From a virus: 64,000 bases of DNA. The notes beneath the pieces were generated by a model that was given only the letters and a program-made list of their open reading frames with translations, had not been told where the DNA came from and did not search any database. Positions 1 through 63,431 of the stretch are shown in pieces (the first letter of the stretch is position 1; every line of letters starts with the position of its first letter). The stretch lies in IMG/VR virus record IMGVR_UViG_3300027956_000006; one strand, written 5' to 3'. The position numbers were made by a program, and so were the translations under genes.

Positions 1-2844
1 CAGGAAATTGATGAAAGACTGGTGAGATATAATAAAGAAAAACAATGCTTTTTTGCTAATACCTCGATCATATGGTATATGCATCATCCCGCAAAAGTTA
101 AAAAAATGCGTTTTTCAAAATCAACTACATATAATGAGGAGATTTTAAAACGCATTACTATTGCTATACAGGATAGAAAAGATCACCATGAAAGCGGGAG
201 AACAAATTACGATATAAGTTTTGAATACAGTTATAAAAAGGGTAATAAAGCATGGTATAGTGAGGAATTTAAAAATTGCGGGAATGGGCATTACTATCTC
301 GCATTAGACGCAACGCACGCATTATTTTATGAGGATGACTAGAGAGAAAGGATAAATATATGAAGAAATTATATTGTAAGGAATGTGATAAGGAGATATC
401 CATGTTGCTTAACCAATCAACCACATGGCATGAATATTTTTTTACATTAGATAATAAGGGCTATACAAATTATGAAGAAAATAAAACTTGGGATGGTGGG
501 GATAACTTATATGCATGTCCTAAATGTAATGCAGTATTGTTTTCGGATGAAGTAAGCGCAATCAAATTCTTGAAAGGAGAAATTTAACATGAAAATGAAA
601 TATATTATATTTGAAACATTAAATGGTTTAAGAGTCCCTATCATATTCCCGGACTTTATTGACCATAGTGATATAAGAAATCAATGTCCTATGTATAAAC
701 CACTATCTGCTGGGAGAATACACTACAACAACGATGAAACTACCTTAATATGTACGGGCGAAAGTACAACTTTAAGATTAAAAAGTTTACCTGAAGATGA
801 AGAATTTATTAACCGTTGTTTAGGTAAATATTAATTCTTATGTATAGAACATTTACACGTACTTGGTGGAAAAATAATTCTTCATGGCCAAATGGCTTAG
901 AACCTTATCCGGGAAGAAAACACTATTATAATACTTACGAAACTCAGGAAGAAGCGCGAAACGCGTGCCAGGAATATAACGCAACACACAAACCTGGTAG
1001 ACTAAGTAAAAAGATGGAATATGAATCGTTTTAAGACAAAACATGTTTCCTTAAGAACGATTCAAGGAATCGAAGAAGCGGAAGCATTACAAGCTACTGG
1101 GTGGAAAATTATAGCCTCAAGTATTGATGTTTTAATATTTGAGAAATTATGCGGGAGGGATGAAAATGAATACTATTAAAATTATAAACGAAATACCTTA
1201 TGAAAGGGTGCAAGATTTACTTTGTAGTGCTTTTGAGGGGGGAAGCAATTATTGGTATGAGATTATTTCATACAATTATCCTAAGGGTGAAACACGTCAA
1301 AGTTTGAATATACGCCACCAACATATACAATTACCATTTAAAGGTGGAAGTATAACTATTCGCTCAAGTGAAACTGATGATGAGCCAAATTACATATTGG
1401 ATTTAAACGCTATTGAAAAGGGATTACAACTTATGGCGACAAAATTCCCTGATCATTTTGCTGATTTTATTAAAGAACAGGATGACGCAACAACAGGAGA
1501 TGTTTTTCTACAATGTTGTTTATTCAAGGATGTGATATATGGATAAGGATAAAATAAAAATAAAATATTTACAACATAAAGCAAAGGGAAAACAAGCAAG
1601 TTTTTTTTATGATGGTGATGTCGCTATACTTACATATAAAGGGAGAGAAGTAACATTGGTTGCAGCTGGAGAGATTAGAATATACAACAAAAATCAGGAA
1701 CTTGTGTATGATTGTAAAGCACGCAACTCTGGTTTCCCTGAATTAAAACATAATGAACCAAAAAACGATAAAGATCTGGTAAGAATAGAAAATCTCGGTT
1801 ATACATGGGGTCTAAATAACTGGTTTGAAGTAATTTTTACATACGATGTTATTAATGGTGTAAAACAACAGGACTCTATTTTAGGCGACGTAGCGTTTAC
1901 ATATGATGAAGGATTGGAATTAGCTAAATATTATTTAACTGATGATGAGTTTTGGAAACAATTTAAAAAGGAAAAAAGATGATACGTATTAATTTACCCC
2001 TTTTGAATAAACAAATCCATGATTTACTTATATCTAATATTTCTGAAGATAGCAAAACTGGTCTGCATAACCTTTTAGGAGAAATAAAGGATAGTTTTGA
2101 TGCTTCTAAAATAATACAAATTGGTTTAGAGAGGAGAGATACTAAAAAAGGAATAAAAAATGTTTAAAGATGTTTTCGCAACAAAACCAGACGCAATAAA
2201 CGCAGAAGGCACTTCTTTTTGGTTAGATAAAGACTCTATGGAATATGTTCAACATATTAAACTAAAAAATGTCCAGGTATTATTTTTAAAAACTCAAGAT
2301 GGATATAAAACAAGAGTTATTGTACGTAATGGAGAATATTTATTTGAAAGCCAAAAATGGGAGGATATATTATGTCATTTAGACGCTATGAATTTTGCAA
2401 AAAAATAACAATAGGTGTTATAATAGTAATGCTATTACTTTTAAATATATCGCAAGGATTCGCACATATATATAAAATCCCTGATAAATTATGGCAGGCA
2501 ATAATCGCTGAGGATACAAGTGGTGATTTTATTACAACACTACATATCGCTTCTTGTGTAAGGAATAGGCTAGAAAGAGGTATGTCACATGGTTTGGTTG
2601 CAATGAAAAGAAAAAATTTAACAACATTTGTAAGAAAGGAATGCAACTATGTATTAAAAACAAAACATATTAGTTTAGAGTACCAAGCGAAAAGGGCATT
2701 ATATGAAGTTTTTACTTTAAATAAAGACTATTGTAATGGAGCAACATACTATGAACACACTGGTAAATATCCCATACCTCTATATACCTATAAAATGAGA
2801 GTTATAAAAATATTGTATAAAAACACAAAAAAAGAAATAACATT

Positions 2845-6278: not shown

Positions 6279-7828
6279 TAAAATGAAACTATCTGTTAAA
6301 TATTACAATGAATATATTGCCATTATGCAAGGTAAGGAAGAAATTATTGGGTGGGAAATATGTGAATGGGAAGAAGACCCACAAATTGTATTCGCAATTT
6401 GTCATGCTATTCAATTAGTAATAAAAAACCCTAAAAAATTACTAAGATTAATAAAAAATAATAGTACAAAAAAATCATTAAAGGAAGGATTATATAATGC
6501 AATACCTTAATCAAAAAGCGGTAAAACAAGTTTTTAGAGGTAAAAAACAATTATCTAAAGATGCCTTAATTTCTATTGATAGAAAAGTAGGTTTATATCT
6601 TGAAAAGTTGGCAACTGTTCCAAGAGAAAAACGTTTAACTGAATTTATAATCAATTATTATAAAATAACAGCATAAGGAGGATATATTTAATGGGATATA
6701 CTCATTATTGGTATATTGTAAAAGAAATAGATTTATCTATTATGAAACAAATAGTAGATGATTTTAAAAAAGTCTTACCGATATTAAACAAGTATGTTGA
6801 TTTAGCTAATGGTAATGGCGAAGGAAATCCAGTAATTTCTTATAATGAAATATGTTTTAATGGTCGTCAAGAATGTAACCATTTAAAAGATGAATTAGGT
6901 ATCGCATGGCCAAGTGATGATGCGGGGGGTATAGCTACTCCTTATAAAGAAGATGTTAAAAAAGGTGATTGGTTTGCTGGTGTATTGTTACAAAAAAGAA
7001 CATGTGGTGGTAATTGTGCTCATGAATCCATGATGATAGAACGCATAAAATCGTTACGAGAATGGGATAGCCCTAAAGAAAATGGTTTATATTTTGATTT
7101 TTGTAAAACAGCGTTTAAACCTTATGATTTAGCCGTAATTACTTTATTAATAATAGCAAAACATTATTTAAAGGAAAAAATAAAAGTAAGTAGCGATGGA
7201 ACAGACGCGCAATGGTTTGACGGTAAAATGTTATGTCAACAGGAGCTAGAATATGGATTAGATTTTGAATTAAATATAACATAAAAGATAACCAAGAGAA
7301 AGGTGAACATGCATAGAAAGCATTATAAAATTATGTACATAATAAAAAAATAAACAAAATAGTTATCTTTCAGATAAAATATAAGGCGGAAAATAAGCGA
7401 TTTAAGGAGATTAAAATGGCTTTACAAACAAATAAAGTAAAAAAATGTTGCGTCCTAGTAAAAAGTTCTGTTGAAGAATACTTTTTGTTTCAACCATTTA
7501 AAGTGCCCACTACATTCTCTTTAACAGAAATATATGATTATATAAAGGAAAACTATGGTGAAAATTATAGCTCAAATTGGTTGCTTACTGATGAAGAAAG
7601 GGATATATTAAATACGTTAATATTACAAATTATACAAAGAAAGGAGATTTAATGTGCACAACAAATACGGAGATATTAAACATGTACTTAGGATGTTTAT
7701 GTAATACTTGTTTTAAGAAATGTTTTGATCTCCGAGATATGGTAATTAATTTTGAAGGTCTGTGTAATAAGTGTAAAGAAAATATATCAAATTTTGAAAA
7801 TATAACATTAACTTAAAGGAGATTTAAA

Positions 7829-11029: not shown

Positions 11030-11630
11030 ATGGAACAATTAACTATTAAAGAAAAAAAATTTAAAGAGAAAGCTGAATCATTAGGTTATACTGTGCGTAC
11101 ATATTCAGGACGTGGTATGTTTGGTAGATCATGTCCCGCTGTAACCGTAGATAACCCAAATGATTTTATTGCAGAAATAGGAATGAAAGGGTTAAAAATT
11201 GATAATATGGGTAGAAGTTATATAGTTTATACGGGATAAATAAAATGAAGAATAAAAAACACGAACCAACAAGAGAAGAAATTCTAAACACTATTGGAGA
11301 TTGTTTTCAACAAATATATCAATGGTGTAATCCAGCTAATGTTGATTTTTGTGAAAATATGGTTAAGTATCAACATCAGGCAGATGCGTTAATAGAATTA
11401 CTTGAAGTACATGATACTGGATCATGTTTATCTCATACAGGTAGTCTTTGGAAAAGATTCGTAAAACGATATAATCAGTATAATGATATTACAAACAAAA
11501 GGTTTGGTTGTGACATTTCTTCATTTAAGGATTTAAATAAGTTTTTTACATTACAAAAGGTTGACTAAAGGGAGTAATTAATGTGTATAAATAAGATAAA
11601 AAATTTGAGTTGTAAATTAGAAAAATTAAA

Positions 11631-12521: not shown

Positions 12522-13522
12522 AAAGGAGAATAGAATGAGAATTGAATATGGGATAAATCCAAATTGTAGCGAAGCGGTATTTAGATTCTATACCTTAGAA
12601 CCTAAAAAAATACATACAATATTACAATCAATCGCTAATGAAATTTCCAATGAAACTGATTTTACACCACATAAGAAACAAAAAATACCTCTTTTAAAAA
12701 ACGCTGATGATTATGACACCAATTATCATAAGGCAACCAATCAAGAATACGATACTCATTATAAAATAATTAGTGTTTTAGCAGCAAAACGTAACAAACA
12801 AAACGCGACTAAAAAGGAGATTGCTGAAGCTGAAAAAGCACTAAAGATAGAGTATGAACGTTTTAGAAAATTACAATATCGTAATAGTGTATCATTAAAA
12901 GCATGCGCTGGTCTTGGTGATAATGACGCTATTATTACAGTTGAAAAAGAAAATGGATCTTTTCGTTTAAATATAGGTAACAATGATATACAAAATAATA
13001 AAACTAATTGGATAGAAAAAGTAAAAGCATTAGATATTAAGATTGAAGAAGCAGAAGTAGGTGAGAATAATTTAAAAGATTATGCACGTGATTGTACATG
13101 CGGTGTGGTATTTTTTGAATAATGCAAAAATTAATAATTGGTATTAAAATTGATGATAAGATAAACTATCTTAAAACAATAGAAATCCAAGAAAATATTG
13201 ACATAATAAATAGGTTAATTAAAGTTATAGATACTTTTATAAAATATAATCTAGAATAGGAGATAAAAAAATGGAAAAATTATCTAAAAAAGTCATTAAA
13301 GAGAAAATTGCCTTATTAGAAGAGGCTAGAGAGTTAATAGAAAAAGCGGTTGCTAATATTCGTGAAGCCGTACAAGATACTTCTGAAGATTCTAGAGCAG
13401 CTGCATATATTATACCAACATTGGAAATGTGTTGTTATGAAAGTACTAATTGGTTAGGTAAACAAGAATCGAATATCGAAGAATTAATAAACAGTTTAGA
13501 AGAAAGCGAGGATGAGGATTAA

Positions 13523-17735: not shown

Positions 17736-18248
17736 ATGGGAACTCGTGGTGCATGGGGATTCAGAAAAGATAATATTGATAAAATCGCTTATAACCATTA
17801 TGATAGCTATCCAAGTGGACTGGGTGAAACCATTAAACATTTTATTGTTAAGCATAGTATTGAGGAATTAGAAAAAACATTTTACCGAATTATCTTAATT
17901 GATGGTAACACACCACCCAATGAAGAACAAATTAAACAATGTTCAAAATTTTTAGATTTAGGTGTTAGCAACAAAACAAAACAAGATTGGTATTGTTTAT
18001 TACGTGAAGCACAGGGCAATCCCGAAGCTTATGTAAATGATTTAGTATATATGGTGGATAGTGCAGCATTTTTAAAAGATAGTTTATTTTGTGAATGGGC
18101 GTATATAATCAATCTCGATACAAAAAGATTAGAAATATATGAAGGGTGCCAAAAAAGAGCACAAAAAAATAGATACTATAATTGTAAGTTACAGTTTGAA
18201 GTTGATTTAGATAAAGTAAAGACTTTTAAAATAGGAGCTATAAAATGA
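17736..18248 (+). CDS. hypothetical protein immediately upstream of and overlapping rtcB
   Basis: Stop overlaps rtcB start (ATGA); likely co-transcribed with RtcB. Confidence 0.3.
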   Translation: MGTRGAWGFRKDNIDKIAYNHYDSYPSGLGETIKHFIVKHSIEELEKTFYRIILIDGNTPPNEEQIKQCSKFLDLGVSNKTKQDWYCLLREAQGNPEAYVNDLVYMVDSAAFLKDSLFCEWAYIINLDTKRLEIYEGCQKRAQKNRYYNCKLQFEVDLDKVKTFKIGAIK

Positions 18249-19477
18249 TTGAAGTTAAATATAATCCCTTGCATGATAAAATACCAGTAAAATTATGGAC
18301 ACAATATGATAAATTAGAATCTGGTGCTAAAGAGCAGATAGAACATCTCCAACAATTACCTTTCGCATTTCATCATATATCTGTTATGCCAGATGTACAT
18401 CAAGGTTATGGGATGTGTATTGGTGGGGTATTAGCTACTGAAAGAGTAGTTGTGCCAAATGCCGTTGGGGTTGATATTGGATGTGGGATGTGTGCAGTTA
18501 AGACTTCTCTTAAGGCGAATCAATTGGATAAAGAAACTCTTAAAAAGATAATGGATAAGATTAGAGAAGTGATACCATTAGGTATGAATCATCATAAAGA
18601 AAAACAAGATGAGAAGTTAATGCCTGAATCTAATATTCTTTCTGCAATGGGAGCAAATGAAAGTGTAGTTTTTTCTGAGTATAACTCTGCTTTAAAACAA
18701 TTAGGAACGTTAGGTTGCGGTAATCATTTCATTGAAATTCAAAAAGATACTAAAGACTCTGTTTGGATTATGATACATTCAGGAAGTAGAAATTTAGGGT
18801 ATAAAGTTGCTAAATATTACAATGATTTAGCTATTAAATTAAATAAACAATGGTTTAGTTCTGTTCCTAAAGAATGGGAATTAGCATTTCTTCCTATAGA
18901 TAGTCCCGAAGGTCAAAATTATTTAAGTGAAATGCAATATTGTGTTGACTTTGCTTTAGCCAATAGAAAATTAATAATGCAGAGAGTCATAGATATATTT
19001 GCTACGTTTTATGGAGACGGATTTCCTTTGAATTCAGACAACTTTGCTTTTAGAGTAGAACCTATAATTAACATCGCTCATAACTACGCTAGATTGGAAA
19101 ATCATTTCGGAAAAAATGTTATTGTTCATCGTAAAGGTGCTACTTCAGCAAGAAATGGGGAAATAGGTATTATTCCAGGAAGTCAAGGTACAAAATCATA
19201 TATTGTAAGCGGTTTAGGCAACTCTGAAAGTTTTATATCTTGTTCTCACGGAGCTGGAAGAACAATGAGTAGAACAAAGGCACAGACAGAATTAAATCTC
19301 GAAGAAGAAATTAAGTTAATGGACAATCAAGGTATTGTCCATGGAATACGAAACAGAGAAAACTTAGATGAAGCACCTGGGGCATATAAAAATATTACTG
19401 AAGTAATGCATAACCAAGCGGATTTAGTTGAGATATTAATTGAACTTACGCCATTATTGGTTGTTAAAGGAGATTAA
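18245..19477 (+). CDS. rtcB: RNA-splicing ligase RtcB (3'-phosphate/5'-hydroxyl RNA ligase)
   Basis: Strong family signatures: SVMPDVHQGYG, VGVDIGCGM, LGCGNHFIEIQ, WIMIHSGSRNLG, NIAHNY, IIPGSQGTKSYIV, SCSHGAGRTMSRTKA; 410 aa. Confidence 0.95.
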   Translation: MIEVKYNPLHDKIPVKLWTQYDKLESGAKEQIEHLQQLPFAFHHISVMPDVHQGYGMCIGGVLATERVVVPNAVGVDIGCGMCAVKTSLKANQLDKETLKKIMDKIREVIPLGMNHHKEKQDEKLMPESNILSAMGANESVVFSEYNSALKQLGTLGCGNHFIEIQKDTKDSVWIMIHSGSRNLGYKVAKYYNDLAIKLNKQWFSSVPKEWELAFLPIDSPEGQNYLSEMQYCVDFALANRKLIMQRVIDIFATFYGDGFPLNSDNFAFRVEPIINIAHNYARLENHFGKNVIVHRKGATSARNGEIGIIPGSQGTKSYIVSGLGNSESFISCSHGAGRTMSRTKAQTELNLEEEIKLMDNQGIVHGIRNRENLDEAPGAYKNITEVMHNQADLVEILIELTPLLVVKGD

Positions 19478-20658: not shown

Positions 20659-22872
20659 ATGGGCAAAACACAAGAAGATTTAGAAAATAGCCGTAAAAAA
20701 CGTGAGTTTGTTATAGAACAATTCGGAGAAGTACCAACATCAATCTGGCCAGTTGATTATAGTTGGGGTAAAAGTACTCTCGAATTAGATGAGAGAAAAC
20801 AACAAAAAATCGCTGAAGAAAAACATAAAAAAATGAAGTACAACCTTCAGACATTCGAAACCCAAAATGGTGAAGTAGTCGAATTTAACCAAATACAAGA
20901 CGCTTTCTCAATGAGTTCGCAAAATGTTAGAGGTAAAGGAGCTGGTCTTTCAACATTTCCTCCAGACCTTTGTCGCAAAATCACCGTATTTTATAGCAAT
21001 GAGGGTGATACAATACTTGATCCTTGCTGTGGGCATGCAAGCAGATTGGAAACAGTACACAAACTGAATCGCCATTATATCGGCTATGATGTATGCCATG
21101 CGTTCTGTGTATTTAATGAGAAAGTCAAAGAAAAATTGCTTTCAGATCAACTCTTCCCTTCTCAATATACGATAACATTACGTGAACAAAGTTCGGAGAA
21201 AATGGTAGAAAAAGATGCTTCAATCGATTTAGTTTTCACGAGCCCACCCTACCATGACATCGAATTCTACGACGATAATCCAGCTCAACTTGGTTATAAG
21301 AAAACATACGAAGAATTTCTCGCTGGTATTACTCGTGTTTTATCAGAATGTTATCGTGTTTTAAAACCAAACAAATTCTGTGTTTTTAATGTGAACGATT
21401 TTAGAAAAGATAATAAATATTATATATATCATGCAGACATTGCGAGAATCATGGAGCAAGTAGGGTTTAAATTGTGGGACATTGTTATTATACCCTGGAA
21501 GAGTTGCATCGGTCAATGTTTAACATCCAATACAGAAATTTTAACAAATAAAGGGTATAAACAAATACAAGATATCAAAGTAAATGATTTAGTTATCTCC
21601 CATTTAGGTAAACAACGTAAAGTACAGCATATCTTTGCACGTCTAATCAAAGAAAAAGTTTATGAATTATCAATAGCTGGGACTAACGATAAAATCATAC
21701 TCACAAAAGAGCATCCGATTTTAAGTGTAAAAAAATCAGCAATCATGTGCGTGCGTAACAAACATCTCCCTTGTAATGGTCATTTCAACAAATCACCCTG
21801 TGTTGCGATAAAAGGAGTCTATAAAACAGATTGTAATAAAAATAATGATAAATTGATAAAAGACGCCACTAAATGGAATAATGTGTCTTCTTTACTGGTT
21901 GGAGATTATGTTGCAATACAAACAAATTTAGATGTTAAAGACATTGAATCTTTGGATATTTGTGATTTTTTAGAAAAGGAACGATTCTATATTTACAATA
22001 ACAAATATATCCTACCAAAATTATATAAACCTTCTTCTGTCAAGATTAATAGAAATATTGATTTGGATTATGATTTGATGAAGTTGTTTGGGTATTTCTT
22101 GTCTGAAGGACATATTTATGTCTATAAAAAGACTGGATATGCAGAAAGCATAACTTTTACATTTAATAAAAAAGAAAAAAATTACATAAAAGATGTTATT
22201 ACGATTATGCACAATAAATTCAATCTGAAAGGAAATATTTATGAACCTAAACAATATAAAACTGCGTCAATTACATTTTATTCTCGTACAGTGAGCGAAT
22301 TCTTTTTGCGATTATTTGGAAATGGTTTTAATAAAAAAGTAATTCCTGATGCATTTCTTTCTTTGCCTACACAGAAACAGTTGGGTTTATTGTGTGGTTT
22401 ATTCCGAGGAGATGGATGTTTGTTGTATAATCAGAAGAAAGAAATTTCTTCAATGAATTTAGGAATGTCTAATAAAAATATTATCAAAAATACACGTGAA
22501 ATATTACTGAGGTTAGGGTATGTGTTTGCATATGGTTATTATAAACCTAAAATCAGCAAAAATCTAACATATCGTATTAGTATTAGTGCAAAAAAAGCTC
22601 CAGCATTGATTGCCCATATCTTTAATAAAAAAATTATTGGCGGCGGATTATATACGTTATCTACCCCAAAAAGCAACACCTATAATTTTAGACGTATTGT
22701 TAATATACGCCAACTGCCATTTGAAGGAAATGTCTATAATCTTGAAGTTGCAATAGATAACTCCTATATTGCTGAAGGTATTATTTGCCATAATTGTTTT
22801 GCTGGTCAGGTTTGGGATCGTAAAATTACCGCTAAATCCCACGAATACTTAGTAGTTGGGAAAAAAATATAG
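20659..22872 (+). CDS. DNA (amino) methyltransferase interrupted by a large LAGLIDADG intein
   Basis: Extein carries ILDPCCGHASRL (motif I-like) and VFTSPPY (motif IV); insertion from Cys287 (CLTSNTEIL) to ...IICHN/C with LFGYFLSEGHI and LFRGDGC LAGLIDADG blocks. Confidence 0.8.
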   Translation: MGKTQEDLENSRKKREFVIEQFGEVPTSIWPVDYSWGKSTLELDERKQQKIAEEKHKKMKYNLQTFETQNGEVVEFNQIQDAFSMSSQNVRGKGAGLSTFPPDLCRKITVFYSNEGDTILDPCCGHASRLETVHKLNRHYIGYDVCHAFCVFNEKVKEKLLSDQLFPSQYTITLREQSSEKMVEKDASIDLVFTSPPYHDIEFYDDNPAQLGYKKTYEEFLAGITRVLSECYRVLKPNKFCVFNVNDFRKDNKYYIYHADIARIMEQVGFKLWDIVIIPWKSCIGQCLTSNTEILTNKGYKQIQDIKVNDLVISHLGKQRKVQHIFARLIKEKVYELSIAGTNDKIILTKEHPILSVKKSAIMCVRNKHLPCNGHFNKSPCVAIKGVYKTDCNKNNDKLIKDATKWNNVSSLLVGDYVAIQTNLDVKDIESLDICDFLEKERFYIYNNKYILPKLYKPSSVKINRNIDLDYDLMKLFGYFLSEGHIYVYKKTGYAESITFTFNKKEKNYIKDVITIMHNKFNLKGNIYEPKQYKTASITFYSRTVSEFFLRLFGNGFNKKVIPDAFLSLPTQKQLGLLCGLFRGDGCLLYNQKKEISSMNLGMSNKNIIKNTREILLRLGYVFAYGYYKPKISKNLTYRISISAKKAPALIAHIFNKKIIGGGLYTLSTPKSNTYNFRRIVNIRQLPFEGNVYNLEVAIDNSYIAEGIICHNCFAGQVWDRKITAKSHEYLVVGKKI
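21517..22794 (+). mobile_element. intein (LAGLIDADG homing-endonuclease type) within the methyltransferase gene
   Basis: Begins with Cys (CLTSNTEILT, block A), ends HN followed by Cys+1; two LAGLIDADG-like blocks. Confidence 0.7.
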
Positions 22873-35040: not shown

Positions 35041-38000
35041 ATGGATTCTTATGAAAATCAATTTATTTATGTTGATGGTTATTATGAAAAATCTTCCGGT
35101 CATGCTACTCCCTGGAAAAGAATTAAAATCTCTGAAATACCTAATTTAAAGAAAAAAGCAGAAAATTTCAACGTTTTTGTTACAGCACAACAATTCTGTT
35201 CACCACAAAGAGTAGAAGAGGAGTTACTTTGGGGGCCTTTATACTTTGATTTAGATGCTTCCGAACAATATCCTATTGAAATAGCAAAAGAAGATGCGCG
35301 TAAACTGGTTGATTTTTTTGTGAAAGGCCATGGTATCAACCACGAGTATGTACGTAGTTATTATTCCATTATTGGTGACACACCTGTATTAATTAAGCAA
35401 AATAATGGTAAGGTCAGATTAATTAGCATACAACAAGTTGTTGAAGAATTTAAAAGAACAAAAAATCTAAAAGTTTATTCTTTAGATCCTACTACAAAAA
35501 AATCTAAATTTTGTAATATATATGATACATTATCACACAAAGAACATGTTATTAATGTTTATCACGAATGTTCAAATTTACCACTTATTATTACTAATGA
35601 TCATTCTGTATATGTTGTTAATGAGAATTTAGAATTAATAGTTAAAAAGGGTAACGAATTACAACGTAATGATTATTTAGTAACATTTAATTCATTAGAT
35701 TATGATTTTGGCAATAATAATGCAAAACGCCCTAATTATACTATATCTTATAAGAATAAATCAATAAAAATTAATAATGATATTGCTAAATTTATAGGAT
35801 TTTTTGTTAGTGAAGGTCATATCTCTACTGATCAACAGAAATATTGTCGATTTTGTGGTAATGTTGGATTGTCTCGTATTGGAATAGGATTTTCATTTCA
35901 TTGTAAAGAAAAAGAATATATCGAATTTATTATAAAAACAGCAAAACAATATTTTAATTTACAAGCACATTCCCATACCTCTAATAATTGTACACAGATA
36001 TTATTTCATTCGCGTGAATTAGCTATTTTAATGGAGCAACTATGTGGAAAAGGTGCAATTAATAAACATTTTCCTGATGAATTTTTAAGTTATAGAAAAA
36101 ATATTCAAATGGCGCTTTTAGAAGGATATTTAGATGGAGATGGACATTATGATAATTATAGAAATAGATATGGTACTACGATATCAAAAATATTAGCAGA
36201 ACAATTAGTTTGGTTAGGGAAATCATTGGGTTTTTCTTCGACAATCCGTGTTGGTAATTATGACATGACACACAATAGACATTCTCATCTTTCTTATCGT
36301 ATTAGTTTTAAAAAACAAAAATTTACAAAATTTGCACCAGCACCAAGAGATTTATTATTACCAGTTAAACCACTAGGCAATGTTTATAGACAATGTTGTC
36401 CAATATTTCAACAAAAAAATAAACGTGTATTTCGCACATTTTTTCTTCAAAAAAATAGATTAAATAAGCAACAAATATATAAAATTATTCGACTTTTAGA
36501 TCGTTATAAAACAAAAGAATTTGATATATTAAGTAAATCTATTATTACGTCCTATAAACAATTCTTTCAAAATAATCTTTCTGTATTACCAATTACAAAA
36601 ATAATTAAAACAAAAAAGAAAGAAATGGTATATGATTTATCGGTTGATCAAAATGAGAATTTTTTTGGTGGTTCATACCCAATTTTATTACACAATTCTG
36701 GGTCCAAAGGATTCCATGTCTTTGTGCATCCAAATGTCTTAAATGTGCATCCAGACGCAAAATTACATCATATTTTCAAGTCTATAGCACTGTATTTAGA
36801 GCAGCTTTTAGAACTTAAGACGCTAGATACAGCTTCTATTTATTCAAAACGTCGTATGATGCGGCTACCAGACTCTTTACATCAAAAATCTAAGCTTTTT
36901 AAGATAGAATTGCAACATAATGAATTAAATAAGACTATTGAAGAAATACGTGATCTTGCTAAACAGCCAAGAGGTAGCTTATGGCCTGAGGAAGAATTTG
37001 GTAATATCTTACCTGTAGATGATGCGGCCATATTTTATAAGCATTTTGTTGACCTCTATAAGCAGCAAGAAATGATTGAGAAACTTAAGCCTCAAGTTTT
37101 GATACGTAAAACAGGTGAAACTGCTACTTGTGTTAAAGATTTACTTGAAAAGCATATACGTAAAAATGGAACCCGTAATTTAGCTACTATGAATTTAGCT
37201 ACATATTTCAAGGATCAAGGGTTTAATGAAAAAGAGACAATTGATGTTTTACTTCCTTGGGCGTTACGCACACCAAAAGAATTCACTTCTACAAAAGATG
37301 CATCTAAATTGAAAGCATCTACAATTTCATGTATAAAGTCTGTTTTTGGAAGTGATTATCATTTTGTTTGCAGTGTTATGCGTTCTCTTGGAGAAATTGC
37401 ATGTGATTTTGAACATTGTGAAATTGCCAATGAAGAAGATCAAAAACCAGAGAAAGAGATTATATTACATTTATCTGAAGCCTCTAATGCATGTTATATA
37501 AGAAAGAAAATAAAATCCAAAGTGCTAGTGGCAGGTAAAGATACTTCTCCATATTTAGTACCAAGACGTATTAAAATGGTCTGTGTTCCAGATTTAAAGC
37601 AGGAAGATAGTAAATGTAAAGAATGTAAGATGGCAAAACACGGTGGTAATTTTGAATTTGAACTAAATGAACATGATGCTTTATTATTAGAGTGTATCCA
37701 ATGTTCTACAACACAACAAATTAATGTTTTAAGACGTTTAACTGAAACAACTAAATGCAATAAACCAAAGCTTTCGATCCTTGATACAGGCAATGTTGAG
37801 GAATTAGAGATTACTCCAGAAATAGATAAGCAGGTTAATATGGCTGCGGAAGGTAGTGAAGAATATGTTACGCGTAAAGCATATTATATTGGACATAACA
37901 TGCCTTTAAATCAAGAAGTTGAAATATCATGTTATACATATGCTGACCCTAAAACGCAACATGCGGTTCATTTATTTAGTGATTTTTCTTCTGCGGAAAC

Positions 38001-39444
38001 ATCTTTGAATAGTTTTAAAATGGATCCACATAAAGTAAAGGAATTGTCTATTTTCAAACCAAAAAACAATCAAACCATTGATCAGAAAATTCTAGAGATT
38101 CATAAAGATCTTGAGTTAAATGTACATCATATTTGGCAACGTGCACCATTGTTTATTGCTTTTGATCTTGTGTATCACTCAGTTTTAAACTTTTATTTTC
38201 AAGGAGATATTTTACGTAAAGGGTGGTCAGAGTTACTTGTAATTGGTGATTCTGGACAAGCAAAAACGGCTGCGGCACAAAAAATATCCCAGCATTATGG
38301 ATTTGGATATCGTATTTCTGGTGAGGGTGCGCGCAGAACAGGTTTGGCGTATACTTGGCATCAAACTGCTAATCGTTGGTCTGTTTCTTTCGGTGTGATA
38401 CCAAGAAATGATAAGCGTATTGTTTTTATAGATGAGGCCGGTGGTATTGATGATGAAGAATTATCTAAATTGACAGATATGCGTTCTGAAGGTATAGCTG
38501 ATGCAAGAGGTGGCCCGATACCAGCACGTACACATGCTCGTACACGTTTAATTTGGATGACTAATACAAAAACAGGGGCGCCGTTAAATGAATACCCTTA
38601 CCCAGTTACAGCTATACAACAAGTTTTTAGACGTACAGAAGATATAAGAAGGTTCGATTTAGCAATAGCCGTACGTTCTGGTGATGTATCTGATGCTATG
38701 ATACACCAATTAATTTCACAACGTGATAAAGTGGAGCACATATACACATCTTATTTATGCAGAAATCTGATTTTATGGGCATGGACGCGTAAAGTTGATC
38801 AAATTATTATTAAACCAGATGCGGAGCAAGCTATCCTTGAAACTGCAATGCATATGTCTCAGAAATATTCTTCTTTAATACCTCTTGTTGAGCCATCAGA
38901 TCAGCGTAATAAGATAGCACGTTTAAGTGTGGCGATAGCGGCAAGGCTTTTTTCGACTGACGAACAAGGCGAACATATTATTGTTTTATCTGAACATGTA
39001 CATTTTGTACGTGATTTTTTACAAGAACAGTATGATGGTCGTGCATTAGATTATTATAATTATAGTCAATTAAATAAAAGGGAGTTTATAGAGTCTGAAT
39101 TTGAAACGATTAAGAATGAATTTATGCACTTACCAGAGTATAAGTTATTAGCAAGTGCTTTAGTAAAAATGCCTTTTTTCAGAAAAACCATCTTGGAAGA
39201 ATTAGTAGGATATGATAAAGATGATATGCGGAGAACGATTAAGATTTTACATGTGCATAATCTTATGAAAGCTACTTCACATGGATTTAAACTAACTGCA
39301 GCAGGTATTAATTTTTTAAAACGTTTATTAACAACACAAGAACTAGTTAATGCTGGGACTGTGGTAACTATTGAAAATGTACCAATCATAAAAGATACCC
39401 AAGAATATATGAATACGGATGATATTTTTGCTGAAGGTAACTAA
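35041..39444 (+). CDS. bifunctional DNA primase (AEP/prim-pol type) - P-loop helicase, interrupted by an intein
   Basis: N-terminal LYFDLDA (acidic motif I) then intein; C-extein resumes SGSKGFHVFVH (AEP motif II); downstream LLVIGDSGQAKTAAAQ Walker A and VFIDEAGGIDDEE Walker B. Confidence 0.7.
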   Translation: MDSYENQFIYVDGYYEKSSGHATPWKRIKISEIPNLKKKAENFNVFVTAQQFCSPQRVEEELLWGPLYFDLDASEQYPIEIAKEDARKLVDFFVKGHGINHEYVRSYYSIIGDTPVLIKQNNGKVRLISIQQVVEEFKRTKNLKVYSLDPTTKKSKFCNIYDTLSHKEHVINVYHECSNLPLIITNDHSVYVVNENLELIVKKGNELQRNDYLVTFNSLDYDFGNNNAKRPNYTISYKNKSIKINNDIAKFIGFFVSEGHISTDQQKYCRFCGNVGLSRIGIGFSFHCKEKEYIEFIIKTAKQYFNLQAHSHTSNNCTQILFHSRELAILMEQLCGKGAINKHFPDEFLSYRKNIQMALLEGYLDGDGHYDNYRNRYGTTISKILAEQLVWLGKSLGFSSTIRVGNYDMTHNRHSHLSYRISFKKQKFTKFAPAPRDLLLPVKPLGNVYRQCCPIFQQKNKRVFRTFFLQKNRLNKQQIYKIIRLLDRYKTKEFDILSKSIITSYKQFFQNNLSVLPITKIIKTKKKEMVYDLSVDQNENFFGGSYPILLHNSGSKGFHVFVHPNVLNVHPDAKLHHIFKSIALYLEQLLELKTLDTASIYSKRRMMRLPDSLHQKSKLFKIELQHNELNKTIEEIRDLAKQPRGSLWPEEEFGNILPVDDAAIFYKHFVDLYKQQEMIEKLKPQVLIRKTGETATCVKDLLEKHIRKNGTRNLATMNLATYFKDQGFNEKETIDVLLPWALRTPKEFTSTKDASKLKASTISCIKSVFGSDYHFVCSVMRSLGEIACDFEHCEIANEEDQKPEKEIILHLSEASNACYIRKKIKSKVLVAGKDTSPYLVPRRIKMVCVPDLKQEDSKCKECKMAKHGGNFEFELNEHDALLLECIQCSTTQQINVLRRLTETTKCNKPKLSILDTGNVEELEITPEIDKQVNMAAEGSEEYVTRKAYYIGHNMPLNQEVEISCYTYADPKTQHAVHLFSDFSSAETSLNSFKMDPHKVKELSIFKPKNNQTIDQKILEIHKDLELNVHHIWQRAPLFIAFDLVYHSVLNFYFQGDILRKGWSELLVIGDSGQAKTAAAQKISQHYGFGYRISGEGARRTGLAYTWHQTANRWSVSFGVIPRNDKRIVFIDEAGGIDDEELSKLTDMRSEGIADARGGPIPARTHARTRLIWMTNTKTGAPLNEYPYPVTAIQQVFRRTEDIRRFDLAIAVRSGDVSDAMIHQLISQRDKVEHIYTSYLCRNLILWAWTRKVDQIIIKPDAEQAILETAMHMSQKYSSLIPLVEPSDQRNKIARLSVAIAARLFSTDEQGEHIIVLSEHVHFVRDFLQEQYDGRALDYYNYSQLNKREFIESEFETIKNEFMHLPEYKLLASALVKMPFFRKTILEELVGYDKDDMRRTIKILHVHNLMKATSHGFKLTAAGINFLKRLLTTQELVNAGTVVTIENVPIIKDTQEYMNTDDIFAEGN
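35365..36696 (+). mobile_element. intein (Ser1, LAGLIDADG type) inserted at the primase active-site motif
   Basis: Starts SIIGDTPVLI (block A), contains FIGFFVSEGHI and LLEGYLDGDGH LAGLIDADG blocks, ends ...ILLHN followed by Ser+1. Confidence 0.65.
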
Positions 39445-56370: not shown

Positions 56371-56379
56371 CTAAGAATT

Positions 56380-56636
56380 TAGTTAATGAACTAGCTACGG
56401 GTAAGCCTTAATGACTTATCTGAGGAAAGTCCAGGCTCTACATAGCAGCGTATCAAAGCTAACAACTTTGAGCAATCATAAAATTGACGATAAGAGGACA
56501 GAGACGAGAAAAATGAGACGACCAATCTCTACGCAGAGCAAGATCAAACAGAACCTGACCTGCTCGGTCGATAGGTTCGGGTAACGATCGCATAGACGGA
56601 TGGCTAGATAAACAAAACCTGGCTTATCATTAACTA
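56380..56636 (+). ncRNA. rnpB: RNase P RNA (compact, ~255 nt)
   Basis: P4 strands GAGGAAAGTCCAGGCTC (hallmark GGAAAGUCCGGGCUC) and ACAAAACCTGGCTTATC (ACAGAACCCGGCUUAUC) with compensatory CGG>CAG / CCG>CTG changes; P1 GTTAATGA / TCATTAAC closes the molecule; CATAGCAGCG after P4 matches CAUAGGGCA. Confidence 0.65.
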
Positions 56637-56646
56637 AATACTTTTT

Positions 56647-58576: not shown

Positions 58577-59905
58577 ATGAAAAATAAAATATTTGAGTTG
58601 TTTAAAGATTTTGAGATATTTCTTGTTGGCGGTTCAGTAAGAGATAAACTCTTGAATATAGAAACTAACGATTTAGATTTCGCTACTAGCGCAACCCCAG
58701 ATCAATCTAAAGCAATACTCGAAGCTGCTGGGTATCATCCGCATACTGTTGGATGGGCATTTGGCACAGTTGGTATTGTAAATGATCAATATGAGGTACA
58801 TATTACGACATATCGTAAGGCTGAAGATTATCAGCGCGATAATCGAAACCCGACAGTTGAATGGGGAAAAACTATTCAAGAAGATCTTATAAGACGTGAT
58901 TTTACCATTAATGCACTAGCACAAAATAGCACCGGCGAGATCATAGATTTATTTAATGGAGTACAACATCTTAAAGATAAGTTACTTGTTACACCGATCG
59001 ATGCGAATATAGCGTTTAATGATGATCCTTTAAGGATGTTACGAGCTGTAAGATTTAAGGCAAGACTTGGTTTTGAATATAGCACAAATGTACAAGAAGC
59101 TTTATATAGACAAGCACATCGTTTATTAATTCTTCCAAAAGAAAGGATCCAAGAAGAATTAAATAAGATTTTAATGACAGATAATGCGGCAGATGCATTA
59201 CATGATTTATATCAATTTAGATTACTAGATTATATAATTCCTGAATTAAAGATGTTAAGTAAGATCGAGCAAGACAGTATTTACCATTCAAAAAATGCAT
59301 TATTACATACCATAGAGGTATTGCGTAATACTTCAAAAGATATAATCTTAAGATATGCCGCAATCTTTCACGACTTGGGTAAAATGGTAACCCGGTCTGT
59401 AGAAAATGGTAATGTCCATTTTTATCATCACGAGAATATTTCGGCGCTTATGACATATCCAATTCTACAAAGATTAGGTTTACCAAAACGCTGGTGTAAA
59501 GATATTACATATCTAGTGAGAAATCATATGCGTGCTAATACCTATGAAAAAGACTGGTCAGATAGTGCAGTAAGACGTTTTATACGTGATACTGGTGAAT
59601 ATTGCGATAGACTTTTAGTACTTAGTAGAGCTGATATCACTAGTCATAACCCAATTACTGTGCAGAAGCATCTCGATTCTTTAAATGATTTTGAAAGACG
59701 TATTAATGAATTAAGAAATTTTAAAGAATTAAAATGCCCAATAAGTGGTTTAGTTATTATGGAATTCTTTGATTTACCAGCCTGCAAGAAAGTTGGTGAA
59801 ATAAAAGAGTTGATTCTGAATGCTATCATTAATGGTGAATTAAAAATTGAAGACAGTGAAGAAGTAATATTAGAATATGCGAAACGCAAGATGGAGATAA
59901 AATAA
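58577..59905 (+). CDS. cca: tRNA nucleotidyltransferase (CCA-adding enzyme), class II with HD domain
   Basis: FLVGGSVRDKLLN...NDLDFAT head-domain motif, RDFTINAL, ERI..EL, and HD motif AAIFHDLGK. Confidence 0.85.
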   Translation: MKNKIFELFKDFEIFLVGGSVRDKLLNIETNDLDFATSATPDQSKAILEAAGYHPHTVGWAFGTVGIVNDQYEVHITTYRKAEDYQRDNRNPTVEWGKTIQEDLIRRDFTINALAQNSTGEIIDLFNGVQHLKDKLLVTPIDANIAFNDDPLRMLRAVRFKARLGFEYSTNVQEALYRQAHRLLILPKERIQEELNKILMTDNAADALHDLYQFRLLDYIIPELKMLSKIEQDSIYHSKNALLHTIEVLRNTSKDIILRYAAIFHDLGKMVTRSVENGNVHFYHHENISALMTYPILQRLGLPKRWCKDITYLVRNHMRANTYEKDWSDSAVRRFIRDTGEYCDRLLVLSRADITSHNPITVQKHLDSLNDFERRINELRNFKELKCPISGLVIMEFFDLPACKKVGEIKELILNAIINGELKIEDSEEVILEYAKRKMEIK

Positions 59906-62620: not shown

Positions 62621-62692
62621 GCCGGGTTAGCTGAGATAGATTAGCGCTGCGCTGAAGACGCGGAGAGGTCAGATCGATACTGACATCCGGCA
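62621..62692 (+). tRNA. tRNA-Phe (GAA)
   Basis: Acceptor GCCGGGT/ATCCGGC, D stem GCTG/TAGC, anticodon stem CTGCG/CGCGG loop CTGAAGA, T arm GTCAG-ATCGATA-CTGAC. Confidence 0.8.
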
Positions 62693-62702
62693 CAAAAAAA
62701 TA

Positions 62703-62730
62703 TTGACATTTGATAAGAATGTGATATAAT
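62703..62730 (+). promoter_or_regulatory. sigma70-type promoter (TTGACA-16-TATAAT)
   Basis: aTTGACAtttgataagaatgtgaTATAATata. Confidence 0.55.
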
Positions 62731-62751: not shown

Positions 62752-62826
62752 AGCTAGGTACCATAATGTTAATGGAACGAGCTGTTAACTCGTGATATGA
62801 AAGTTAGACTCTTTCCCTAGCTGCCA
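62752..62826 (+). tRNA. tRNA-Asn (GUU) with encoded CCA
   Basis: Acceptor AGCTAGG/CCTAGCT, D stem CCAT/ATGG, anticodon stem ACGAG/CTCGT loop CTGTTAA, T arm GAAAG-TTAGACT-CTTTC, then G-CCA. Confidence 0.85.
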
Positions 62827-62850: not shown

Positions 62851-63242
62851 GGGGACGATCAGGTTTCGATTTAAATAAATAAGCATGGATCGCACATCGC
62901 AGACGCAATGTTGGCTGCGTTAACAAACATTGCAAATCTAAACGCAGACGAAAATACCCGTTTGTTAGCTGAAGCAAATGCTATTGTAGCACATGTATTT
63001 GCCGATGCACCAGTCGTAGCTACAATATAGTTACGCACCTACTTATTTTGTGTAAGTAATAAGTAAGGTACGATATTACACTAGTTTTAATATTGTCTTG
63101 ATATTAAAATGAAACTAAAAGACTATGTGTGTATGAACATGTCTGTTTGTATGTACACAATGAAGATAAAACAATAGACTATATGTGTAGCATATTTATG
63201 TTTAATTATTTAAAGACCGCGGTTCAATTCCGCGCGTCTCCA
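62851..63242 (+). ncRNA. ssrA: tmRNA (SsrA) with unusually long tag reading frame
   Basis: 5' GGGGACGATCAGGTTTCGA (cf. GGGGCUGAUUCUGGAUUCGA), 3' T arm CGCGG-TTCAATT-CCGCG + CGTCTCC-A pairing with 5' GGGGACG; internal frame GCA GAC GAA AAT ACC ... ATA TAG (ADENTRLLAEANAIVAHVFADAPVVATI*) resembling ANDENYALAA start. Confidence 0.65.
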
Positions 63243-63250
63243 CAATATAT

Positions 63251-63325
63251 GTCTGGGTCGCCTAATTGGTAATGGCAACTGGTCTACACCCAGTAATAAT
63301 GAGTGTTCAAGTCACTCCCTAGACA
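63251..63325 (+). tRNA. tRNA-Val (UAC)
   Basis: Acceptor GTCTGGG/CCTAGAC, anticodon stem ACTGG/CCAGT loop TCTACAC, T arm GAGTG-TTCAAGT-CACTC. Confidence 0.7.
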
Positions 63326-63331
63326 CTAATT

Positions 63332-63421
63332 GGACGGTTAGTTTAAATGACAAAACCCACGGCTTATACCCGTGAAGCTCCCGATTAGAGCGCATTGTAG
63401 GTTTGAATCCTACACCGTCTA
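63332..63421 (+). tRNA. class II (long variable arm, 90 nt) tRNA with anticodon UAU
   Basis: Acceptor GGACGGT/ACCGTCT, D stem GTTT/AAAC, anticodon stem CACGG/CCGTG loop CTTATAC, variable arm GCTC-CCGATTA-GAGC, T arm GTAGG-TTTGAAT-CCTAC. Confidence 0.55.
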
Positions 63422-63431
63422 CTAAATATAT

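Follow-up and report, generated by a model that had tools for sequence, protein, structure and literature searches.

A one-piece tmRNA with a 28-residue tag ending in Ala-Thr-Ile in the tRNA array of an uncultured large phage

The 64,000 nucleotides (nt) analyzed from the IMG/VR virus record IMGVR_UViG_3300027956_000006, hereafter called the window, contain a transfer-messenger RNA (tmRNA) gene. The feature is a genuine, full-length one-piece tmRNA of an uncultured large phage. Its internal reading frame encodes a tag of 28 amino acids (aa) that ends in Val-Val-Ala-Thr-Ile, and a comparison with related phage lineages shows selection at the level of both the RNA and the peptide. The identity of the gene, its frame and structure, the selection acting on it, the polarity of changes at the C-terminus of the tag and the genomic context can together be stated with high confidence. 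The explanation that best accounts for the data overall, i.e., a functional phage tmRNA with the pathway and tag role outlined below, is considered probable.

ARAGORN calls a tmRNA at 62851-63243 (+), with the coding part at 94..180 of the gene, and the Rfam model RF00023 matches 62851-63245 with 137.5 bits (gathering score 47, E 1e-53) over its entire length (model positions 1-374 of 374). Thus the proposal of a tmRNA in a preliminary description, made from the sequence letters, is borne out by both programs. The 5′ end of the gene reads GGGGACGATCAGGTTTCGA, as the same description had quoted; the T-arm and acceptor strand also quoted there are found at the 3′ end of the gene (Table 1) and form the tRNA-like domain with it. 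The G3:U70 pair of alanine identity, which had been named as a check, is present in the window and is invariant in all six lineages described here. The 3′ CCA is not encoded, and the gene end reads CGTCTCC-A-CAA.

Relatives were gathered by two routes, a DNA pattern based on the first part of the tag and homologues of the neighboring CCA-adding enzyme, for which the cluster representative P0001 is listed at 100% identity to the window protein. Five further lineages carry a homologous tmRNA in the corresponding location, behind tRNA-Asn (Table 1), and related tmRNAs sit on contigs of 135 and 215 kb that are catalogued as viral. The tmRNAs of L020 and L024, with Rfam scores of 125 and 106.6 bits, were overlooked by ARAGORN; both have unusual T-loops. 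The L020 T-arm (11310-11340) reads CCGAG-CGCGAAT-CTCGG, without the usual TTC, and that of L024 (15740-15772) reads GGCGT-TATCGTA-AACGCC. The L021 and L022 contigs end before the expected tmRNA site. A further candidate, L001, was rejected, as its match to the 5′ 19-mer is a chance match in G+C-rich coding DNA without a tmRNA.

Beyond these lineages the tag type was not encountered. Degenerate ADENxRLL patterns run against metagenome and viral collections returned only two contigs, both already known. A pattern of the tag start with upstream bases gave 12 matches in 185,579 bacterial and archaeal species representatives (one genome each), none of them in a tmRNA; at that pattern stringency the tag type is therefore confined to the phage clade. 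A distant-mode blastn search of the tmRNA against 50,697 GenBank phage records gave no match, nor did the 24-kb flank.

The secondary structure is conserved across the six lineages. In the helices tested, 94.3% of the cells are paired, versus 38-52% in slid controls in which the pairing partners were displaced by 1-3 columns. Compensatory changes occur at 18 of the 30 base pairs tested, including pairs of both stems of the pseudoknot PK1, and none of 500 shuffles matched the observed covariation. Both parts of the tRNA-like domain covary: the 7-bp acceptor stem (helix 1) is fully paired, with compensatory changes at three of its seven pairs, and the T-stem shows such changes at all five. RNAalifold predicts 103 pairs from the six sequences, 54 of which display compensatory double changes. 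In the PK2-PK4 region the cmscan alignment has a low posterior probability; RNAalifold gives covarying hairpins there at columns 241-269 and 289-324.

The tag called by ARAGORN, ADENTRLLAEANAIVAHVFADAPVVATI, has a net charge of -3 and the end ATI. Of the three frames it alone stays open across the six lineages, over 26-28 codons. Alternative tag frames, including one for a short canonical tag, are ruled out, since stops interrupt the other two frames in most lineages. The resume codon, frame, length and C-terminal end given in the preliminary description were confirmed in this manner, and the model-based annotation that it had named as a check arrives at the same resume codon and stop. In the codon alignment the same residue is retained despite codon variation at ten tag positions (R6, L7, L8, A11, I14, V15, F19, A20, A26 and I28), and nearly all pairwise comparisons show more differences at third codon positions than at first or second ones. 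Codon variation at constant residues, together with an excess of third-position differences, is the pattern of a translated frame under purifying selection. As judged from this alignment, the tag peptide is under purifying selection, mainly in a core of R6 L7 L8, A11, I14 V15, F19 A20 and A26. Thus the sole open frame, the ten synonymous-type positions and the covariation together place both the RNA and the peptide under selection. An amphipathic helix over tag residues 5-20 was considered and rejected; its hydrophobic moment compared with shuffles gave p values of 0.016-0.15, and Pro17 is present in four of the six lineages.

These results bear on the possibility that the tag is functionless and that the value of the gene lies in freeing ribosomes, or in a competition for SmpB that damps host trans-translation. 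The variable tag terminus within the clade would fit such a role, as would mycobacteriophage DS6A, whose RNA has little beyond the tRNA-like domain, since molecules of this type inhibit tmRNA (PMC4131195). However, the window phage and its relatives have retained the whole mRNA-like domain, PK1 and the frame, and the ten residues held through synonymous change point to selection on the peptide. A role in rescue or as a decoy alone is thus very unlikely.

It should also be considered whether translation goes past the TAG stop, by recoding or with a suppressor tRNA, into a longer tag that would continue as ATI-x-LRTYLFCVSNK before its stop. TAG recoding occurs in some large phages, and ARAGORN calls a tRNA(CUA) in L020. 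This call (tRNA-Pyl (cta), 12946-13020) is, however, a one-base register artefact of a tRNA-Arg(UCU), 93% identical to that of the window phage and with the same loop, CTTCTAA; the array of the window phage has no CUA tRNA. In addition, TAG terminates 11 of the 60 open reading frames (ORFs) of the window, among them those of the SNF2 helicase and the methylase, the corresponding tag codon is TAA in L020 and L026, and the frame 3′ of the stop is not conserved. With TAG serving as a normal stop, TAA in two lineages and the suppressor tRNA an artefact, read-through is extremely unlikely. In mycobacteriophage Bxz1 (L040) ARAGORN makes a similar call at 7437-7509, where the record's annotation is 'tRNA-like product'.

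The end of the tag frame lies in the helix-5 hairpin. On its 5′ side, CGTAGC (63015-63020), the hairpin takes in the third base of codon 24, all of codon 25 and bases one and two of the Ala26 codon. The remaining Ala26 base is in the loop, TACAATATA, together with the Thr and Ile codons and bases one and two of the stop. The 3′ strand is GTTACG. Codon 25 in the window is GTA (Val), with TTY or TTA in the other lineages, and a compensating C is found in the 3′ strand. In E. coli tmRNA a tandem UAA UAA sits within the loop of helix 5, where the window has two sense codons. Thus this clade reads two extra codons in the loop in which standard tmRNAs such as that of E. coli stop.

The tags of the relatives end in FASI, FAVI, LATI or PVFA, the penultimate residue of the long forms being T, S or V. 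The A-x-I end is kept in four lineages, with variation between ATA and ATT in the Ile codon. In L002 and L024 the stop comes two codons earlier, which gives the PVFA end, and an in-frame ATT TAG follows the stop; these two short forms have in common the tag start ADENQRLLAS and an identical stretch 3′ of the stop. Polarity was assessed with a neighbor-joining tree built on the linked CCA-adding enzyme, in which six cellular-type sequences served as outgroups. L003, whose tag ends in LATI, is the first branch among the six lineages (99% support), and the window and L020, both long-form, cluster at 100%; the placement of L002, L024 and L026 is not resolved by this tree. Taken together, the tree and the start and post-stop stretch shared by the short forms, with ATT TAG as a relic, indicate A-[T/S/V]-I as the ancestral end of the clade's tags and a nonsense mutation at codon 27 as the source of PVFA. 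Thus the ATI end of the window tag is no single-genome accident. The two lineages that end in PVFA nevertheless show that the exact tag terminus is dispensable.

As the preliminary description had pointed out, the tag does not end in ALAA; its V-V-A-T-I lacks the C-terminal hydrophobic-Ala-Ala-COOH (LAA, VAA or similar) by which ClpXP-type degrons are recognized. The further suggestion, that such an end routes tagged products elsewhere or lets them evade host proteolysis, is speculative, and is weakened by the viable relatives that end in PVFA. In its selective form this explanation would have the A-x-I end maintained so that host ClpXP misses the rescued products, which are then spared or sent to another protease. 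The absence of the Ala-Ala typical of ClpXP degrons would be in keeping with it; in an E. coli screen ~1% of C-terminal pentapeptides were degrons, with Ala strongly enriched at the last two positions and Leu and Val depleted at the last (PMC10862746). The ancestral state of A-x-I, its maintenance in four lineages through variation of the Ile codon, and the lack of this tag type in the cellular genomes searched would be in its favor as well. However, the two PVFA lineages evidently persist, the penultimate residue is variable, and the loop with these codons is conserved even when untranslated. Degron rules from E. coli may not apply to the host of the phage, and the tag, like ordinary ones, still terminates in a hydrophobic residue (PMC4131195). 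Selection for re-routing or protection is therefore regarded as unlikely.

The mycobacteriophage genomes first brought tmRNAs of phages to light (PMC1475703, PMC4131195). Tags on record are 8-35 aa long, and their readers are ClpXP, ClpAP and Lon (PMC8012679). Most often a tag has 10 aa (PMC11915505, on a database of 97,179 tmRNA sequences), and as a general rule it ends in a hydrophobic residue (PMC4131195). The tag was described at the outset as long and non-canonical; its 28 codons and its end without Ala-Ala stand, but neither is unusual for a phage tmRNA, given this range of lengths and the Bxz1 tag described below. Huge phages carry tmRNA with many tRNAs and other translation genes (PMC7162821). 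Some of them encode SmpB, whereas none was found among the scanned ORFs of the window, and the nearest huge-phage relative of the window CCA-adding enzyme is ~32% identical. The tag of Bacillus phage G, AKLNITNNELQVA (PMC12484599), likewise has no ALAA end but is short (13 aa).

The closest likeness is to the Bxz1 type of the cluster C1 mycobacteriophages, in which a large lytic-type phage also has a one-piece tmRNA inside a big tRNA array. ARAGORN places the Bxz1 tmRNA at record positions 100059-100493, with the 25-aa acidic tag ATDTDATVTDAEIEAFFAEEAAALV, which ends in AALV. The two phages thus share a long acidic tag with a hydrophobic end other than Ala-Ala (ALV and ATI). They differ in the terminal residue, Val in Bxz1 and Ile in the window, as well as in host range and G+C content; blastn detects no homology between the tmRNAs, and the tags are unrelated in sequence. 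No RNase P RNA is annotated in the stretches of Bxz1 that were inspected, on which no model search was run. The ssrA of E. coli (tag AANDENYALAA; ClpXP, ClpAP, SspB) resembles the window tmRNA in the tRNA-like domain, G3:U70, PK1, the GCA resume codon and the position of the tag end in the helix-5 hairpin. The tag starts are also similar, A-N-D-E-N in E. coli and A-D-E-N in the window, but E. coli encodes 10 residues versus 28, and the window tag has no LAA-COOH.

The tag of Mollicutes is about 27 aa long and ends in YAFA or AFA, which the VFA end of the short-form relatives resembles. In Mycoplasma and Mesoplasma the long ssrA tags are degraded by Lon (PMC8403727, PMC10695633), and the C-terminal residues are still important (PMC8403727). 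These tags, of ~26-27 aa, thus provide an established case of long tags whose reader is a protease other than ClpXP. They are, however, cellular and not phage-borne, the window tag adds T-I after its Ala, and the likeness to the window tag is one of length. The window tmRNA possesses the full-length model match of the family, a tRNA-like domain without an anticodon arm, G3:U70, PK1 and a tag frame that has no start codon, begins at an Ala resume codon and stops in the helix-5 hairpin; it fits the Bxz1-like pattern. Long non-standard phage tags being already known, it is a new example and not a new kind.

What the preliminary description did not take in is the genomic context: the gene it identified correctly is a phage gene within an array of 22 tRNAs called by ARAGORN and one tRNA detected by Rfam only. 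All ORFs of the window are on the + strand, at ~30% G+C. The proteins that can be recognized have phage-type roles in replication and RNA repair: a primase-helicase and a DNA methylase, each with an intein, an SNF2 helicase, RtcB, the sliding clamp DnaN and the CCA-adding enzyme. The nearest cultured phages show 32-37% protein identity, which is uninformative for host assignment; this, together with the lack of a DNA match among GenBank phages, makes the phage an uncharacterized one.

An origin as a host tmRNA, at a prophage junction or in a chimeric contig, has to be weighed against this context. tmRNA genes are common integration sites (PMC11915505), and a protein of the phage integrase family is encoded in the window. 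But the gene is flanked at 24 nt and 8 nt by phage tRNAs on the same strand, with phage genes on either side, and its place is unchanged in six phage lineages, whose contigs reach 215 kb. With a G+C content of 0.36 it lies near the remainder of the array (0.32-0.38), and its tag type is in none of the 185,579 cellular representatives searched. A non-phage origin is accordingly given almost no credence.

Upstream of the array segment that holds the tmRNA there is a promoter with all 12 consensus positions and the extended -10 TG (Table 1). The consensus is that of sigma-70, and the match is by sequence only. There are no terminator-like sites on the + strand between this promoter and the tmRNA, and the promoter probably drives a unit of tRNA-Asn, tmRNA, tRNA-Val, tRNA-Ile and onward. 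As tRNA-Val begins 8 nt further on, excision of the tmRNA from a precursor with several tRNAs is implied. Among the array genes CCA is encoded in tRNA-Asn only, and is absent from the tmRNA and all other tRNAs. The phage CCA-adding enzyme would thus be a candidate to complete the tmRNA's 3′ end.

A second RNA gene of possible relevance to maturation lies between tRNA-Asp and tRNA-Ser. It is a minimal bacterial type-A RNase P RNA, which is also found in L020 and L021 (Table 1), with lengths of 251-272 nt in the three lineages. The conserved core motifs, GAGGAAAGUCC and ACAAAACCUGGCUUA, are intact, and so is helix P4. Nearly all of a 24-nt element and of a 79-nt stretch belonging to the specificity domain is deleted. 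Among the 47 predicted pairs, 27 display compensatory changes across the three lineages. The RNA was not detected in L002, L024, L025, L026 or L016, and blastn against GenBank phages gave no match. The strong Pfam matches from the 54 scanned window ORFs include no RnpA, and no report of a phage RNase P RNA gene was found in the literature searched. This RNA is possibly the maker of the 5′ ends of the tmRNA and tRNAs, and it may be a more novel feature than the tmRNA itself.

In the pathway proposed, the tmRNA would be transcribed together with the neighboring tRNAs from the consensus sigma-70 promoter. RNase P, possibly with the phage's own RNase P RNA, would cleave the precursor to make its 5′ end, and completion of its 3′ end would fall to the phage CCA-adding enzyme. 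The mature RNA would be ~390 nt long and would extend from 62851 to ...CGTCTCCACCA. Host alanyl-tRNA synthetase would charge it with alanine via G3:U70, and it would act on stalled ribosomes jointly with SmpB, probably that of the host because none is encoded in the window. The ribosome would resume at GCA and append the acidic tag ADEN-x-RLL...IV...FA...VVATI. Given the conserved core under purifying selection, the tag would most likely be a recognition or degradation signal. Its determinants may be spread along the peptide and include the hydrophobic C-terminus, in place of a ClpX-type LAA-COOH; the long Mollicute tags that depend on Lon are a model for such an arrangement. This degron mechanism is put forward tentatively, with somewhat less than even confidence.

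Several points weigh against the explanation as a whole. The loop motif ATW TAR, i.e., the Ile codon and stop, is conserved also in the two short-form lineages, where it is untranslated, and thus some or all of the constraint on the terminal Ile may act on the RNA. A role at the RNA level is on record for the 3′ end of the E. coli tag frame, which is needed for RNase R recruitment (PMC8012679). The processing route, the use of host SmpB and alanyl-tRNA synthetase and the fate of tagged proteins are steps that we infer from sequence. The strong Pfam matches obtained with the 54 window ORFs comprise no SmpB, Lon or Clp family (seven weak families, E 5.5e-5 to 1e-3, are outside this list), and an SmpB gene could lie outside the 64-kb window. 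The nearest cultured phages, at only 32-37% identity, give no guide to the protease or SmpB involved. The six lineages are a small set, four of which were found through the linked CCA-enzyme gene, and no tmRNA lies within 10 kb of two other relatives of this enzyme, those on L023 and L025.

A broader scheme would combine the phage's own RNase P RNA, CCA-adding enzyme, RtcB and ~30 tRNAs with the tmRNA into a largely self-sufficient module for small translation RNAs. Within it the tmRNA would take over ribosome rescue during infection, with a long, clade-specific tag invisible to host ClpXP, so that the products are re-routed or spared. It is looked upon as a distinctly unlikely scheme.

Table 1. 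Positions of the tmRNA gene, its parts and associated features, and tags of the related tmRNAs (each tag is followed by a stop codon)
Feature	Position	Strand	Remarks
tmRNA gene, one-piece standard form	62851..63242	+	G1 to discriminator A; ARAGORN, RF00023, six-lineage covariation
Acceptor stem, 5′ strand GGGGACG	62851..62857	+	pairs with 63235-63241 (CGTCTCC); contains G3 of G3:U70
Pseudoknot PK1	62898..62932	+	just 5′ of resume codon; 7/12 pairs compensatory
PK1 stem 1	CGCAG 62898-62902 / CTGCG 62915-62919	+	100% paired, 3/5 pairs compensatory
PK1 stem 2	CAATGTT 62906-62912 / AACATTG 62926-62932	+	82% paired, 4/7 pairs compensatory
Tag frame	62944..63030	+	resume codon GCA at 62944; 28 sense codons; stop TAG 63028-63030
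Helix-5 hairpin	63015..63035	+	100% paired, 3/6 pairs compensatory (six lineages)
T-arm CGCGG-TTCAATT-CCGCG, acceptor 3′ strand CGTCTCC and discriminator A	63218..63242	+	sequence, RF00023
Promoter, sigma-70 consensus (TTGACA, 16-nt spacer, TG, TATAAT)	62703..62730	+	21 nt 5′ of tRNA-Asn
tRNA-Asn(GUU)	62752..62826	+	ends 24 nt before tmRNA; same neighbor in all relatives
tRNA-Val(UAC)	63251..63326	+	starts 8 nt past tmRNA discriminator
CCA-adding enzyme (tRNA nucleotidyltransferase)	58577..59905	+	Pfam PolyA_pol, PolyA_pol_RNAbd, HD; PHROG 2244
RNase P RNA, minimal bacterial type A, 263 nt	56379..56641	+	RF00010 112.2 bits (gathering score 100); between tRNA-Asp and tRNA-Ser
RNase P RNA, L020	3389-3660		116.5 bits; Rfam
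RNase P RNA, L021	8607-8857		111.4 bits; Rfam
Tag, window			ADENTRLLAEANAIVAHVFADAPVVATI; tmRNA identical in L017 and L018 (same phage)
Tag, L020	Logan contig, 20.6 kb		ADEDNRLLAEANKIVDQIFADAPVFASI
Tag, L026	Logan contig		ADENTRLLAEANAIVEPIFADAEAFAVI
Tag, L003	IMG/VR contig, 215 kb		ADENSRLLNSANEIVSPMFAESVLATI
Tag, L002	IMG/VR contig, 135.5 kb		ADENQRLLASAEDIVAPIFAGDPVFA
Tag, L024	Logan contig		ADENQRLLASANSIVAPIFANAPVFA

Other features of the array and of the window were also observed. The tRNA-Ile(UAU) at 63332-63422 (+), two genes 3′ of the tmRNA, is 91 nt long and has a long, class II-like extra arm. The long arm is kept in L020 (11583-11673), and the L003 version is a normal tRNA of 76 nt. 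ATA is the last sense codon of the tmRNA and makes up 38% of the Ile codons in window ORFs. An extra tRNA at 62621-62692 (+) is detected by Rfam only (44.2 bits) and is missed by ARAGORN; its anticodon loop, CTGAAGA, contains by eye the anticodon GAA (Phe), and relatives have tRNA-Phe(GAA) at the matching array position.

Inteins with LAGLIDADG homing-endonuclease domains are present in two gene products, the primase/MCM-type helicase (35041-39444 (+), 1467 aa) and the N6/N4 DNA methyltransferase (20659-22872 (+), 737 aa). L025 encodes a similar intein-bearing protein of 1455 aa. Genes for RNA repair or maturation are those of the RtcB ligase (18245-19477 (+)) and the HD-domain CCA-adding enzyme (58577-59905 (+)), and cREC_REC, a cyclic-phosphate-processing receiver domain, is found among the batch-scanned ORFs. 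The combination of RtcB, the CCA-adding enzyme and cREC_REC suggests a defense against tRNA-cleaving nucleases of the host.

To our knowledge, nobody has so far shown the role of phage tmRNAs. Taken alone, the window tmRNA is one more case of a known class. The clade constitutes a small, clean comparative system, with six lineages, selection at the peptide level and a natural pair of variants that end in FA-x-I and FA. Less expected is the minimal RNase P RNA of the array. Should it be active, it would represent a compact natural ribozyme and indicate that the processing of tRNA 5′ ends, too, is brought along by some phages.

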